Sequence record: OR539219.1
Source of the DNA: Escherichia phage vB-Eco-KMB39
Direction: 5' to 3' (one strand)
Length of the DNA: 64,000 nucleotides
In this document: positions 24,146 to 30,381 of the stretch, piece after piece
How positions within the stretch are numbered: position 1 is the stretch's first letter
Layout of the letters: every line of letters begins with the position of its first letter
Made by a program: the position numbers and the translations under genes
Notes under the pieces: model-generated
The model's database searches: none
The model's input: the letters and a program-made list of their open reading frames with translations, nothing else
What the model was told of the DNA's origin: nothing

Positions 24146-24149
24146 CAAT

Positions 24150-24175
24150 GGGGACCTTTCGGTCCCCATATTTTT
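24150..24175. terminator. bidirectional terminator after gene 54 / 96-aa ORF
   Basis: GGGGACC-TTTC-GGTCCCC then TATTTTTATTT. Confidence 0.7.
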
Positions 24176-24464
24176 ATTTACGGAATGAAATGAAAGCAGC
24201 AACTGAAGCAACTAAACTGTCTTCAATATAAACTTCAATTTTTACCGGAGCTTCTGACTCAAATTTACCTGTTACTACACCCTGAAAAATACTTTCAGTC
24301 TGTTTTGGCTTTGAAAAATTTTCAGAAGGAAAAATTCCGAACTTTTTATCTGTTCCAAAAATTTTGATAAATTCATCGTAAACTGCTTCATTAAAAGCGT
24401 TATCAGCAGGAATAACGCCTTCAACTACAAGTTCTTGACCTAAAAAGCGCAAAGAAGATTTCAT
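24174..24464 (-). CDS. hypothetical protein downstream of alt
   Basis: 96 aa; own early-type promoter (GTTTAC / TATAGT) and GAGGAA RBS. Confidence 0.5.
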   Translation of the reverse strand: MKSSLRFLGQELVVEGVIPADNAFNEAVYDEFIKIFGTDKKFGIFPSENFSKPKQTESIFQGVVTGKFESEAPVKIEVYIEDSLVASVAAFISFRK

Positions 24465-24495: not shown

Positions 24496-24525
24496 ACTAT
24501 AACACAACATAAGGAACTTGTAAAC
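24496..24525 (-). promoter_or_regulatory. T4-type early promoter (GTTTAC -35, TATAGT -10)
   Basis: GTTTAC-N18-TATAGT on - strand, upstream of ORF 24174-24464. Confidence 0.55.
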
Positions 24526-26582
24526 TACATTTTGAACTTTTTAGACATTCCGTTGATGTTAACCAAAGAAGCCAAGATTTGAGAAACTTCGTTTTCCTCT
24601 TCTTTTGATTCTTCTACAAGAAATTGATTAAATCCAGCCATTGGACGAACTTCACCAGTTTCCATTAGATGGTCTCCATCATATACTGATTCTTCTAATT
24701 GTTCAGAAGGAGGAACGATTGTACCTTCAATTAGATACTTGTTATAAGCAGTTTCTTTCATAAAGTACGTACTTACTTTATTAATCTTCAGTAAAATTCC
24801 ACGCGGTAGAATAACTTCAGCTTCTGATGGAAATCCTGATAAATGACCTGGAACGATAACTTTGATTCGCTCAGCTCCTTTAATTACCATACCCACGCTA
24901 GTTTCAGCATCTTCATTAGCATATGTAGAATGACTACCCATATGCATCAAATCTTCTGCATCAACGGAATCTTCTCCTTCACCGGAAAATACTGCGCCGG
25001 AATCATCTAGAGCCATATAGTTTTTACCATGCTCACCGAAGATATTTGGTTTAAGCGATGTGGATACGAAGTTCTTGAAATAAAACATTTTATTTTCAAT
25101 GTTATGACGCAAAGTTTTAAAGGTAACTTCTTGTCCACGGTAAAGCGTAGTTCCTGGAGGAAGAACTGAACCTTTAGCGAATGCAGAATCCAACGTCTCG
25201 ATGTGCTTAATAGCACGTTCCATATATTCTTCACGGGTAGAATCTGGTTTACCCAAAAGGAACGAGTTCATTTCAACATATGAATCTGCACAATAATCTT
25301 CAATTACATCAGACTCAGCCTGAGTCAGTCCTTTTGGAGTTACTTCAGTGCTTGCGTATTCATATGCCTGAGCAGCAGATTCATTAATCAATTTATAAAT
25401 GCCATTCATGACAAATTGAATAATAGCTGTCTTTTCATCTGGCGTAGCTTTAGAACCTTTAACCAAATCATTGATAATTTTCTTAATAACATCAAAGCTA
25501 TTAGAAATATTAATGTCAGCAAGATCGCTTAAAATTTTATCGGTTTTATAATCAAAGAATTCTTTATTCTTTAAATATTCTTGAGAACCTTGATATGTTA
25601 TATCGCTCTGCAGCTTGATAGATGGATCACGTAAACGCGCATGGGCCAATGCGATATGATTTCGGAAGTTTTCTAGTTCATAATCGCTAGATTTAAAACG
25701 AGAAGCACTCCTCATACCACCAATAGCTCCTTTGCTGAAGTTTGAACCAATCTGGATAACGCCAGAGTTCATTGGTCCTTCTGCTTTATATACCGGAACT
25801 TTAGATTCAAACTCTTGATATTTCTTGGCAGCGAAGCTATCACCCTGAAGTGAAGCATCAACAGTAGAATATTGAGCTTGTGCTGCTAATCGACGACTGA
25901 TTTTAGTTTTCTGAATAACAGCTTGGTCCGTGCGTTTATCATTTTCTAAAGCAATAGAAGCAGCAACAGCGACAGCTTTAGGAACAGCATTTCCTGTTTT
26001 AACGTCTACATAAACATCACCGACCTTTGATTCAACTTTTGTGAATAACTCAGTTGAAATAGGAGGTACACCTGGAATGTCTTCTAAATTGGCATTTTTA
26101 CGGTAAACCATAATATATGCATACTTTTTATCATAGTCCCAGATTTCCTTTAAAAGAACATATCGACCTGCTCCTTTAGTACGTACTAAACGGTCAGCAA
26201 TAACTTGCATTTGACGAGCTGCGCCATTTGTTTTACTCTTTAGTACACGGAATAAGCACGCGTCAATTTTGTACTGCTTCATTGTTTGAAGAGCAGTATC
26301 AAAAACAGCATTAATGACGCCAATTGGATTTCCACCCAAGTTTCTAAGCTTAACCAGCGATAATTTCTCGTTGACACCTATCATTACGATATGCATCATT
26401 TTATCGCCTAGTTTAACGTTTTTATTTGTATCACCACCAGAGGTGTATGTACAAAATCTAAATCCAGGAAGCACGCTTTCTTCGCCGGCTTGGATAGCAA
26501 AAATTTGAGGTATTTTATGCTTAGGATTTAAGTTAACAACCGGCGCCGAAGCGCCGTCAAATAATTCTGTAATAAGTTCCAT
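24525..26582 (-). CDS. alt: Alt-family ADP-ribosyltransferase (copy 1, 685 aa)
   Basis: C-terminal ART signature: R (LYRGQ), S-T-S (FVSTSL), E-x-E (SEAEVILPRG); N-terminus MELITELFD... Confidence 0.8.
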   Translation of the reverse strand: MELITELFDGASAPVVNLNPKHKIPQIFAIQAGEESVLPGFRFCTYTSGGDTNKNVKLGDKMMHIVMIGVNEKLSLVKLRNLGGNPIGVINAVFDTALQTMKQYKIDACLFRVLKSKTNGAARQMQVIADRLVRTKGAGRYVLLKEIWDYDKKYAYIMVYRKNANLEDIPGVPPISTELFTKVESKVGDVYVDVKTGNAVPKAVAVAASIALENDKRTDQAVIQKTKISRRLAAQAQYSTVDASLQGDSFAAKKYQEFESKVPVYKAEGPMNSGVIQIGSNFSKGAIGGMRSASRFKSSDYELENFRNHIALAHARLRDPSIKLQSDITYQGSQEYLKNKEFFDYKTDKILSDLADINISNSFDVIKKIINDLVKGSKATPDEKTAIIQFVMNGIYKLINESAAQAYEYASTEVTPKGLTQAESDVIEDYCADSYVEMNSFLLGKPDSTREEYMERAIKHIETLDSAFAKGSVLPPGTTLYRGQEVTFKTLRHNIENKMFYFKNFVSTSLKPNIFGEHGKNYMALDDSGAVFSGEGEDSVDAEDLMHMGSHSTYANEDAETSVGMVIKGAERIKVIVPGHLSGFPSEAEVILPRGILLKINKVSTYFMKETAYNKYLIEGTIVPPSEQLEESVYDGDHLMETGEVRPMAGFNQFLVEESKEEENEVSQILASLVNINGMSKKFKM

Positions 26583-26585
26583 GAT

Positions 26586-28679
26586 TTATCCTTGAACGAA
26601 CTTGTAAGGCATGTTTGTAATATCTATGCAAGACGCAATAATTCCAAGAGATGATTCTACTTTCTGTTTAACATTTGATGAAACAAATGATGCAAAGTCA
26701 ACTTTGTCTTCTATTTCAATATCACCTGTCATTGCAACTACTTCGCCGGTTTCCATTAAACGGTCACCGTCATAAATTACCGATTCGGTGAGTTCTTCTG
26801 TGGTCATAACTTCAGCTTGAATGAGTTTTGTATTATTAGACGTGATTCCGTCATTATTAGAAGCATCAGTTATTTTATTAACTTTGACCATCAATCCACG
26901 CGGTAGAATAACTTCAGCTTCTGTTGCTATTCCGAGACTTCCTGGATATACAACATTAACTTTATGAGCTCCATCAATTGCCCATCCTATTTGAACTTTA
27001 ACGTATTCAGGATTTTCTTTATACGCTCTTATTTCGTTTGGATTAATAGTTATTCCTTCTTCATTTTTATCAACTGTTAATTCATTGCGAGCTTCTGGTT
27101 CTAAAAGACCAATACCAGCATGTGTAATTCCAAAACGTCCAAAAATGATAGGAGTTAAAGAAGTAGATACAAAATTTCTGAAATAGAACACTTTATTTTT
27201 AACTAGTGCTTCGTATATAGGAGCAGTCATACTTTGAGCACGATAAACTGTAATGCCTTCTGGTATACGGTCACCATTTTCAAAAGCTGAATCTAAATTA
27301 TTTATAGCAGATTCAATTTCTTTTTCACTCATTATATCATATCGTTCTGGATTGTAACGACCTAAAAGAAGATTATTGATGTCTGTATATCCTGAACCAC
27401 AATACTCTCTAATGCCGCGCTTTTGTGATGGAGTATATTTAGAACCATCACGGGCAATAGTAATATCAATCATTGGACCTGCACCAATTCCGGAAAAGCT
27501 ATAAATCATTCGTTTGAGGAATTTAGTTTTTGCTGCATTCCAGGCATTTTTAGTTATTTCTCCCCAGACTTCATCTGGCTGCCCTTTACGAGTTTTATTA
27601 TGTTTATCAAGCCAATTATCTTTATATTCTTCAAATAATTGATTAACAGCTGCTGCGTATTTCTCTAAACATTTTATTGAAGTAGTTGGTTCATTTTTAA
27701 TCGCATTAAGAATTACATCTTTAATTTTTTCTGAAACTTCACCGACTTGACTCATTGGAAAGAATTTATAATCATAGTGAAGTTCATCTGCCGTTCCTTC
27801 AGCAATAATTTTTGCTGCCTTAGTTTTAGAAGCTAATGAATTAATTCCAAGCTTCATTTCTTCTGCTTCGGGAATTAAAGGTGCAGTAGCAGGTTTATTG
27901 AAATTAGCTGCGGTAGATTCATACTTCTGGAATAATTCACTTTCAAATCTAGAAGATTCCAATGACTGACTTTGTGCAATTGCTCTACGGGAAATTTTAA
28001 CTTTAACGATTACGGCTTGGTCAGAACGTTTATCGTTTTCTTGTGCAATAGATGCAGCAATTGCCTCATTTTTGGTTACTTGAGCTCCAGTATCTTTATT
28101 AATATAAACATCACCGACCTTCGATTCAACTTTAGTAAAGAGCTCGGTACTAATTTCCGGAACTCCTGGAATGTCTTCTAGTGATACATTTTTGCGATGT
28201 ATAAGAATATATGCATACTTTTTATCATAATCCCAGAGTTCCTTAAGAAGGACGTATCTGCCACCTGAACGACTACGGATAAGTCTATCAGCAATAACTT
28301 GAATTTGTCGAGCTTGGCCAGCAGTTTTAGACTTAAGAATACGAAGCATACAAGCATCAATTTTATACTGACGCATTGTTTGCATTGCAACAGTAAAAAC
28401 TGAATTGATATAATTAATTGGGCTTGGACCAAGACCTTTTAATTTAGCAATTGAACCTTTAGCAGTTAATGTAAAAGGAACAATATGCATCATTTTGTCG
28501 CCCATTTTTAAATCGCGATTAGTATCACCTCCAGATGTATAGGTACATAAACGAAAGCCTGGTTGTTCAATTGCATCATCAACATGAACTGAAAAAATTT
28601 GTGGTATTTTCTTCTTTGGATTTAAGTTTGTAATCGGAAGAGTAGTATCTTCGTCAAATAATTCTGTAATAAGTTCCAT
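26586..28679 (-). CDS. alt: Alt-family ADP-ribosyltransferase (copy 2, 697 aa)
   Basis: Same N-terminus and ART motifs (VYRAQ, FVSTSL, TEAEVILPRG); central region diverged; late promoter TATAAATA upstream. Confidence 0.8.
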   Translation of the reverse strand: MELITELFDEDTTLPITNLNPKKKIPQIFSVHVDDAIEQPGFRLCTYTSGGDTNRDLKMGDKMMHIVPFTLTAKGSIAKLKGLGPSPINYINSVFTVAMQTMRQYKIDACMLRILKSKTAGQARQIQVIADRLIRSRSGGRYVLLKELWDYDKKYAYILIHRKNVSLEDIPGVPEISTELFTKVESKVGDVYINKDTGAQVTKNEAIAASIAQENDKRSDQAVIVKVKISRRAIAQSQSLESSRFESELFQKYESTAANFNKPATAPLIPEAEEMKLGINSLASKTKAAKIIAEGTADELHYDYKFFPMSQVGEVSEKIKDVILNAIKNEPTTSIKCLEKYAAAVNQLFEEYKDNWLDKHNKTRKGQPDEVWGEITKNAWNAAKTKFLKRMIYSFSGIGAGPMIDITIARDGSKYTPSQKRGIREYCGSGYTDINNLLLGRYNPERYDIMSEKEIESAINNLDSAFENGDRIPEGITVYRAQSMTAPIYEALVKNKVFYFRNFVSTSLTPIIFGRFGITHAGIGLLEPEARNELTVDKNEEGITINPNEIRAYKENPEYVKVQIGWAIDGAHKVNVVYPGSLGIATEAEVILPRGLMVKVNKITDASNNDGITSNNTKLIQAEVMTTEELTESVIYDGDRLMETGEVVAMTGDIEIEDKVDFASFVSSNVKQKVESSLGIIASCIDITNMPYKFVQG

Positions 28680-28702: not shown

Positions 28703-28710
28703 TATTTATA
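28703..28710 (-). promoter_or_regulatory. late promoter core TATAAATA (Alt copy 2)
   Basis: Reverse-strand exact match 23 bp upstream of ATG 28679. Confidence 0.65.
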
Positions 28711-28715
28711 AAATT

Positions 28716-28733
28716 AAAGGCCCGAAGGCCTTT
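28716..28733 (-). terminator. hairpin upstream of Alt copy 2 late promoter
   Basis: AAAGGCC-CGAA-GGCCTTT (UUCG loop on - strand). Confidence 0.5.
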
Positions 28734-28735
28734 AA

Positions 28736-28921
28736 TTAATAGAGAGCTAAAAGAGTACGATATACTTCAAACTTTGGACCTTTTTCATATGGATCAAATC
28801 TTTCCATGAATTCATCATATGCTAGTTTATCTGGGAATTCAAGAATAACCTGCGATACCGCAGTGGAAACATCTCCACCTTCTTTTTGAGCCACGACAAT
28901 TGTTTCTAAGTAAGCTTTCAT
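28736..28921 (-). CDS. hypothetical small protein
   Basis: 61 aa; ATGA-coupled to gene 30 stop; terminator hairpin downstream. Confidence 0.45.
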   Translation of the reverse strand: MKAYLETIVVAQKEGGDVSTAVSQVILEFPDKLAYDEFMERFDPYEKGPKFEVYRTLLALY

Positions 28922-30381
28922 AAACCAGTTACCTCATGAAAATCGCCAAATACATCTTCGAACGTATTAGCTTTAGTTTTATCTTCACGTAAACGAATTG
29001 CAATTGGAAGAAATAGCTTAACGTAATCAGTACGTCCATCTAATTTTACCCAGCCGTTGCATTCGCACTCTAGAATTTTTCCAATATAATAATTTTGGTT
29101 TTCCATAATGCGAGTACGATCAAGTTCATGCGATTTTATACCGGCTTTATCTTTTAAGCCTGAACCAGCATTTACTTTAATTTTTCCACACTCTGATTCA
29201 AGAATGAAACCACCTGCTTTAGTAGGGTCTTTACGGTGAGGATAAATTCCTACAATTTTTAAATCAACATCAATTACTTCTTTAAATTTATAAAGATTTT
29301 TTGAACGAGCATTTTCCCATAATCCATCGATATTTTTAAGAATAATACCTTCAAGACCTTGGTCAATATACTTTTTATAAATTACCTTAGCTTCATCTAG
29401 GTTATTTACTACTTGGTTTTCAATTAAAATTACTTTATCATAGCCTGATGTCATTTGTTCTAGTTTAGAAAAACGTACATCATATTTTAAACGAAATGCT
29501 GGAAGACCATATATTTCTACTAATGGAACATAGTCCCAGACCTGAAACTTCATGCATTGTGCTTCTTTTTCAGAAATGGTTCCCTTTAAAGATTTATTAG
29601 CGATTCCATTAGAAGTAGTACGTGATTCAGCTACTTCGGCGAATTCTTTAGCTTTACTAATTTCAGGATAAGCATCAAAAAGAAAATCTAGGCCTTCTGG
29701 TTCCTTTTTAACTTGCTCATGGTATACCAATTCGCCATCAATTAACACACCTTCTGGATGAATCTGGCGAGCTTCTGCAGTCATTTTGATTAACTCTTCC
29801 TTGAGAAGATCTAATCCTAGATATTCATTACCAGCTCGTGATAAAAGACGAACATCATCTAATTCATCACCTCTGACTTCAGCAAAACAGCGAGCTCCAT
29901 CAGCTTTTAGCTGTGCAAAGGCTGGAAATTTGATATTCTTATTAATGCCTTTTTCGTCATAAGAACTTGCTAGCATTTGAGGTTGTTCAGGAATTAAACC
30001 TGGCCAAACTTTGTTTGCAATAGATACTGATGCACCGCATTCAAGGTCTCGCATCATCACCCGACGCAAAACTTCAACATCATCTTTTTTACCGTCAGTA
30101 ATATATCCAGTTAATTCCTCAATTGCCGCATTTCCAGTCAATTTCCGAGTAGCTAACGTGAATTCAATGAAGTCAAGCATATCGGTAAGAGTCAACATTC
30201 CAAAACTCTGGGTAGTAATACCCGGTTTAGGCCATTTCTTGATATAATACTGTAACCCACGAGAATAAGTCAGACGATATACTCGTTTAAGCAATTCATT
30301 ATCTTTATTCTTTTCAAGAATTGCTTGCTTCTGCTTAGTTGAACCAATAGATGCTATTTCGTTCAGAATTTTAAGAATCAT
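28918..30381 (-). CDS. 30: ATP-dependent DNA ligase gp30
   Basis: 487 aa; adenylation lysine motif region (...KADGARC...); MILKILNEIASIGSTKQKQAILEKN... Confidence 0.95.
   Translation of the reverse strand: MILKILNEIASIGSTKQKQAILEKNKDNELLKRVYRLTYSRGLQYYIKKWPKPGITTQSFGMLTLTDMLDFIEFTLATRKLTGNAAIEELTGYITDGKKDDVEVLRRVMMRDLECGASVSIANKVWPGLIPEQPQMLASSYDEKGINKNIKFPAFAQLKADGARCFAEVRGDELDDVRLLSRAGNEYLGLDLLKEELIKMTAEARQIHPEGVLIDGELVYHEQVKKEPEGLDFLFDAYPEISKAKEFAEVAESRTTSNGIANKSLKGTISEKEAQCMKFQVWDYVPLVEIYGLPAFRLKYDVRFSKLEQMTSGYDKVILIENQVVNNLDEAKVIYKKYIDQGLEGIILKNIDGLWENARSKNLYKFKEVIDVDLKIVGIYPHRKDPTKAGGFILESECGKIKVNAGSGLKDKAGIKSHELDRTRIMENQNYYIGKILECECNGWVKLDGRTDYVKLFLPIAIRLREDKTKANTFEDVFGDFHEVTGL

Follow-up and report, generated by a model that had tools for sequence, protein, structure and literature searches.

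A tandem pair of Alt-family ADP-ribosyltransferase genes in a Tequatrovirus and its reduced counterpart in T4

Alt is the textbook example of a phage-injected enzyme that reprograms the host, and nearly all knowledge of it comes from T4. This study examines the alt locus of Escherichia phage vB-Eco-KMB39 (OR539219.1), where two Alt-family genes, altA and altB, lie in tandem on the minus strand. The window is the whole 64,000-nucleotide stretch of this phage that was analyzed. It belongs to Tequatrovirus, and its closest matches in the phage collection were at 96.6% over 24 kb and 98.0% over the locus (T4_ev240). The upstream gene, altA (26586-28679), encodes 697 amino acids and is the positional orthologue of T4 alt, in an allelic form designated A-type. 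The downstream gene, altB (24525-26582), encodes 685 amino acids and is a second Alt paralogue, corresponding to alt.-2 of RB32. Both were identified as open reading frames (ORFs) with Pfam and PHROG matches. The gap between them is 3 nt, and the altB Shine-Dalgarno sequence AAGGA overlaps the altA stop codon. A motif scan found a T4-type late promoter motif, TATAAATA, at 28703-28710 (minus strand), 24 nt 5′ of the altA start codon; the motif stands at the equivalent place before alt in T4, RB32, T4_ev240 and JoYop. The pair has the genomic position of the Alt family, between gene 30/alt.1 and alt.-3/gene 54 with a late promoter in front.

An initial annotation, made from the sequence alone, had described these two adjacent ORFs as Alt-type enzymes, and both are indeed full-length Alt-family ADP-ribosyltransferases (ARTs). 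The products AltA and AltB are 40% identical over their full length by BLASTP (E 8e-158). The Pfam family PF03496 (ADPrib_exo_Tox) was matched by AltA with an E value of 1.5e-37 (129.3 bits) and by AltB with an E value of 5.4e-20 (72 bits), the cut-off being 23.4. The PHROG family phrog_802, named 'Alt-like RNA polymerase ADP-ribosyltransferase', matched residues 1-696 of AltA (E 9e-272) and 1-685 of AltB (E 6e-256). A third family, PF26846 (Tevenvirinae_ADPRT), was recorded for the 98%-identical P0001 and for the chimeric proteins described below.

The full R / S-T-S / E-x-E motif set is present in both copies, as first noted, and careful alignment revealed no missing catalytic residue in either. 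In AltA the residues are R480 (27240-27242), S505-T506-S507 (27159-27167) and E587-A-E589 (26913-26921), all encoded on the minus strand. The AltB counterparts are R482 (25137-25139), S507-T508-S509 (25056-25064) and E587-A-E589 (24816-24824), on the same strand. These columns were invariant in an alignment of 53 diverse Alt-family sequences. Mutating the second Glu of E-x-E abolishes the activity of T4 Alt (PMC11404850). The inactivating mutation is named E577A in that paper, and the motif falls at E574/E576 in the RefSeq translation (L001 6455-8503); presumably the same motif is meant. The ADP-ribosylating toxin turn-turn (ARTT) turn that precedes E-x-E reads G-I-A-T in AltA, G-F-P-S in AltB and A-P-S-N in T4 Alt.

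Identity between the two copies is distributed unevenly along the proteins. The N-termini had been called near-identical, which holds for the first nine residues (MELITELFD) only; the N-domain as a whole is ∼67% identical, with windowed values of 50–80% over residues 1-238. The divergent center was borne out. The middle domain cannot be aligned, and windowed identity falls to 15–35% at residues 239-430. Identity is 37% over the ART domain as a whole, 36–57% around the ART motifs and 9–23% between S-T-S and E-x-E. Near the C-terminus a YDGDxLMETGE block, also common to T4 Alt, is 71% identical between the two copies.

Both proteins carry motifs that would suit processing by the gp21 protease. 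T4 Alt is cut by gp21 after ITE-6 and LTE-619, as mapped by mass spectrometry (PMC5694885), and it shares the ITE-6 and L-x-E motifs with AltA and AltB. On the minus strand, the AltA motifs are ITE6 (28662-28670) and LTE632 (26784-26792), and those of AltB are ITE6 (26565-26573) and LEE631 (24690-24698). All lie at positions homologous to those of T4, and E6 and E631 are conserved in at least 90% of the 53 diverse family members.

A structure of AltB was predicted using AlphaFold2, with a mean predicted local distance difference test score (pLDDT) of 81.7 and a predicted template modeling score (pTM) of 0.71. The model comprises an alpha/beta N-domain (residues ∼15-225), an all-helical middle domain (∼230-415) and the ART domain (∼420-622), followed by a disordered linker (631-659) and a terminal helix (661-672). 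When the model was compared with the PDB using Foldseek, only ART toxins were returned, namely Vis, C3, Certhrax, CDTa and VIP2, which matched the ART domain with probability 1.0, and C2-I. Searching the PDB by sequence found no solved Alt structure and only weak matches to CDTa and iota toxin (E ∼1e-3). The C2/C3-like R-S-E toxins (Vis, C3bot, Certhrax, CDTa, iota Ia, VIP2 and C2-I) have the ART fold and the catalytic motif in common with Alt. They differ in being secreted or delivered by a binding component, and they have no counterpart of the Alt N-domain or helical middle domain and no propeptides removed by a protease; sequence identity is 14–21%. The N-domain showed weak similarity to the GNAT fold, from which no fold assignment was made.

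The initial annotation left unsure whether T4 itself has one copy or two. T4 has one full alt gene together with remnants of a second, in the order alt (682 aa), alt.-1 (61 aa), alt.-2 (67 aa), alt.-3. Together alt.-1 and alt.-2 correspond to AltB residues 1 to ∼117, with the frame broken after about residue 54, and phrog_23015 and phrog_15247 gave a stronger match to AltB than to AltA. The altB segment that is missing from T4, delimited by blastn and the junction, spans 24545-26234 (minus strand), 1.69 kb or altB codons ∼117-680. At the T4 junction is an imperfect direct repeat of 9 nt, CTAAA(A/G)AGT, whose left copy is CTAAAGAGT and right copy CTAAAAAGT. Because the junction falls in such a repeat, T4 is best read as a deletion derivative of the two-gene state rather than the reverse. 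The database records word the history differently: the T4 GenBank note describes the remnants as an old partial duplication, while in the RB32 record the full gene is entered as an 'apparent insertion in alt.-2'. Between these wordings the junction favors a deletion in T4.

T4 Alt (NP_049811, 682 aa) otherwise has much in common with the pair, including the locus between alt.1 and alt.-3, the late promoter, the domain order and the R/S-T-S/E-x-E motifs. Compared with AltB it is 41–42% identical overall, with a middle domain that cannot be aligned. The full altB is found at the same position in other relatives. RB32 alt.-2 and the second Alt-like gene of T2, T6 and RB27 are altB, with 685 codons and 95–98% DNA identity.

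Prevalence was determined by searching 50,697 phage records. The segment deleted from T4 was found in 406 records, 401 of which had it nearly complete (≥80% coverage). The altA plus altB locus was present at ≥80% query coverage in 349/543 matching records, including T2, T6, RB32, RB27 and RB33, and the T4 deletion junction was found in 91/485. The locus of this phage therefore differs from that of T4, yet is standard for the genus. The RefSeq label for the pair is 'Alt-like RNA polymerase ADP-ribosyltransferase (x2)'. By these comparisons the two-gene arrangement is the ordinary, already annotated Tequatrovirus state with T4 as a derived exception, and the two-copy state is common, and probably ancestral, in the genus. 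T4 carries a minority, reduced locus; a second, well-conserved enzyme is encoded, and possibly injected, by most of its relatives.

Alt duplications have been noted before. Those of T4 (alt.-1/alt.-2) and 44RR (ORF187c) were described in 2006 (PMC1524935), and those of the Acinetobacter phages ZZ1 and Ac42 and of JS98 and Bp7 in 2014 (PMC4177764). In 44RR, ZZ1, Ac42, JS98 and Bp7 the tandem paralogues lie next to alt as they do here, but these phages belong to other genera and their sequences are more divergent. A tblastn search with the N-domain gave 1818 places in 1201 Straboviridae records; among the matches listed, some genera had one place per genome and others had two. An apparent third copy in NiC89 was rejected. 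Its altB starts only 1,572 nt from the end of the record, which means that the linear record must cut the upstream alt in two at its ends; this presumably accounts for the extra place. What is added here is small: the exact T4 deletion junction, an allelic cassette within alt, recombinant single-gene loci and selection data for altB.

The cassette was found when T4 was compared with the window by blastn. A portion of altA at 26915-27941 (minus strand), encoding about residues 247-588, from the middle domain through the ART domain as far as E-x-E, is unlike T4 alt, while its flanks are 91–94% identical in DNA. At the protein level AltA and T4 Alt are ∼100% identical in the N-domain, 30–32% in the middle domain, 61% in the ART domain and 90–96% at the C-terminus. 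In other words, the N-terminal ∼245 and C-terminal ∼90 residues are nearly the same, residues ∼247-588 are a different allele, and the lengths are 697 and 682 aa. The A-type cassette occurs in 355 phage records and the T4-type in 176; in many T4 relatives the catalytic cassette of alt differs from that of T4. Either cassette type can be found with either state of the second gene. The A-type is accompanied by altB in this window and by the remnant in VEc20; the T4-type is accompanied by altB in JoYop and PYps35T and by the remnant in T4.

Recombination has also produced loci with a single, chimeric gene. The contigs from metagenome/Logan assemblies that encode the four proteins P0003-P0006 have one alt gene between alt.1 and alt.-3. 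In each protein AltA-like sequence gives way to AltB-like sequence with a clean switch, and the four crossover points, all within the N-domain, are different. Chimeric genes with an altA-type N-terminus and an altB body are located, for example, at 5001-7055 of L006 and 5001-7061 of L007. We considered whether they were assembly artifacts and rejected this, as the isolates ECML-134 (NC_025449), SCS4 (ON506924) and Yersinia phage PST (NC_027404) also have the single-gene locus, each within one uninterrupted alignment. The chimeras arose by unequal crossover between the two tandem copies. Viable phages thus exist with the altB body as their only Alt, and therefore this body can serve alone. It also follows that the PST gene annotated as 'alt' is mostly the second paralogue, being a chimera with an altB body. 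Taken with the T4 deletion and the cassette alleles, the unequal crossovers in the N-domain indicate that the locus is one reshaped by homologous and microhomology-mediated recombination.

The remnants in T4 might suggest that altB is a decaying duplicate, a pseudogene in the making without a function of its own. T4 and ∼90 other records have lost most of altB and are still viable, and Alt is non-essential in T4 (PMC9026906). Selection was estimated from the ratio of nonsynonymous to synonymous substitution rates (dN/dS). Pairwise dN/dS for altB was 0.018–0.048 at dS values of 0.10–0.26, and it was low (0.02–0.05) in all four regions taken separately. The alt alleles gave 0.046–0.083, the highest value being that of altA versus RB32 (0.083); the T4_ev240 alt pair is near-identical (3 differences) and uninformative for dN/dS. 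All the full-length altB copies that were read, those of the window, RB32, T4_ev240, JoYop and NiC89, have an unbroken ORF of 685 aa. These values contradict decay, as do the retention of all catalytic and cleavage residues, the 401 nearly complete copies of the segment that T4 lacks and the use of altB as the body of the sole alt gene in PST and ECML-134. The pseudogene explanation is highly improbable and was rejected. altB is a maintained gene under strong purifying selection.

How altB is transcribed was examined with motif scans. The initial annotation had assigned a late promoter to the upstream copy only. The motif at 28703-28710 was confirmed, and no late, MotA-type or early-type motif was found directly upstream of altB, but a second TATAAATA lies inside altA. 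It is on the coding strand at 27299-27306 (minus strand), 717 nt upstream of altB, and apart from it the interval from the altA start to the altB start contained no MotA box, early -35 or late motif. The internal copy is conserved in RB32 and T4_ev240, but T4 and JoYop, whose alleles are T4-type, lack it. About 0.3 occurrences of TATAAATA are expected by chance on this strand over this length (shuffled sequences gave 9 per 64 kb on both strands). The site may act as a late promoter for altB, or it may plausibly be there by chance. A sigma-70-like sequence, GTTACA-16-TATAAT (27331-27358, minus strand), sits just upstream of it within the A-type cassette. A promoter of altB's own was rejected, since no motif lies directly upstream and the sigma-70 consensus scan gave 19 sites versus 17.9 in shuffles. 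We infer that altB relies on read-through, with both genes transcribed from the late promoter at 28703-28710.

The locus is quite probably a two-gene late transcription unit for two paralogous, injected, arginine-specific mono-ADP-ribosyltransferases of the Alt type. T4 Alt is a component of the prohead core, present at ∼40 copies per head, and is injected with the DNA (PMC9026906, PMC9958956). By analogy, AltA and AltB would both be made late, from one transcript. Both would enter the prohead core by way of the shared N-terminal module, comprising the MELITE propeptide and the ∼235-aa domain, and the conserved C-terminal propeptide. Trimming by gp21 would follow, and both would stay in the mature head until injected along with the DNA, after which each copy would modify its own set of host proteins. 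T4 Alt is cited as ADP-ribosylating the alpha subunit of host RNA polymerase and other host proteins (PMC9503650, PMC5512222).

An alternative is that only AltA is injected, and that AltB is not packaged and acts late in the producing cell, or on RNA or DNA, or by RNAylation like ModB. Packaging is so far known for T4 Alt only, and T4 ModB, also a phage R-S-E ART, shows that such enzymes can act on unusual substrates (bioRxiv 10.1101/2021.06.04.446905). AltB nevertheless has several features in common with packaged T4 Alt: the propeptide at the N-terminus, the N-domain that follows, the LxE site towards the C-terminus and the YDGDxLMETGE block. No early or middle promoter precedes it, and some isolates have an altB body and no other Alt. 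We regard an unpackaged AltB as quite unlikely.

AltA and AltB probably share one packaging route and differ in their host targets. In C3 and iota-like toxins the loops between S-T-S and E-x-E, including the turn before E-x-E, recognize the substrate. Divergence of targets is plausible from where the differences lie, in the middle domain and in the S-T-S to E-x-E loops. Because the differing parts recognize substrate in related toxins, different target sets are the most likely reason that both copies have been kept. The copies could instead be redundant, acting on the same targets (RNA polymerase alpha and others), with duplication only raising or buffering the dose of injected enzyme. They have the family, the arginine-type E-x-E motif, the processing motifs and the operon in common, and either copy has been lost in nature. 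A dosage duplicate, however, would be expected to stay similar, and here the middle domain is unalignable, the ART domains are only 37% identical and the substrate-recognition turn differs. Moreover, each type is kept at >94% DNA identity with low dN/dS across hundreds of phages. Redundancy is therefore an unlikely explanation, if somewhat less so than the lack of packaging.

Several points weigh against two injected enzymes with separate targets. Redundancy or dosage is also compatible with the sequences, and different targets are a plausible reading of them. Confidence in the AltB model is low in the loops between S-T-S and E-x-E (pLDDT 40–60). The L/I-x-E cleavage motifs are short and present elsewhere in both proteins, and because of this we infer gp21 cleavage from position and conservation only. 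The internal TATAAATA would allow some separate transcription of altB. A literature search turned up reports of the duplication, but no direct evidence of AltB in virions or of its injection, and no virion proteomics. It likewise found no activity or target data for AltB or the A-type allele, although this is weak evidence since coverage of subscription journals was thin.

The preferred reading, of two injected enzymes with their own targets, has a model in the T-even internal proteins Ip1, Ip2 and Ip3, which show how several injected paralogues can coexist. Like Alt they are packaged in the head, processed by gp21, injected and non-essential, and they differ from one T-even phage to another. 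The three each block their own variant of GmrSD (PMC12373910). Unlike Alt they are small stoichiometric inhibitors with no enzymatic domain, so the analogy is functional only. By extension, we tentatively suggest that the A-type, T4-type and B-type cassettes could form a repertoire of injected ARTs with different targets, mixed by exchange, deletion and crossover. At least one target would then be something other than RNA polymerase alpha, e.g. a host defense or toxin protein. This is possible but doubtful. As a weaker addition, the faint GNAT-like similarity hints that the N-terminal 'packaging' domain might have a second activity.

As a gene pair the locus is unremarkable and has been annotated before; the biological question it raises is what AltB and the A-type cassette modify. 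T2, T6 or RB32 would be better systems than T4 for studying the roles of injected ADP-ribosyltransferases.

The genes flanking the pair are also on the minus strand. The DNA ligase gene, gene 30 (28918-30381), lies upstream of alt.1 (28736-28921), an ORF of 61 codons between gene 30 and alt. Its product matches Pfam PF24647 (Phage_blade, E 4e-28), and it occupies the position of T4 alt.1. It overlaps the end of the ligase gene by 4 nt, and directly 3′ of it are a hairpin and the alt late promoter. The hairpin was read directly from the sequence at 28716-28733 (minus strand), just after the alt.1 stop codon, as AAAGGCC-TTCG-GGCCTTT followed by AATTTT. The consensus scan did not list it; its form is that of a terminator-like end for the gene 30/alt.1 transcript.

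Downstream, alt.-3 (24174-24464, minus strand) is the final gene of the unit, identified as an ORF of 96 codons with the Pfam domain DUF5498 and by comparison with T4. A bidirectional terminator hairpin at 24148-24169, with a 9-bp stem that includes 6 G-C pairs, was reported on both strands between gene 54 (plus) and alt.-3 (minus). Motif scans placed a sigma-70-like, early-type promoter motif, TTTACA-17-TATAGT, between altB and alt.-3 at 24496-24524 (minus strand), with GTTTAC at 24525, so alt.-3 has an early-type motif of its own. Mutants of T4 with a C-terminal extension of alt.-3 escape the CmdTAC defense (PMC11618068). Compared with T4 Alt.-3, the protein encoded here has a single change, K54 for E54.

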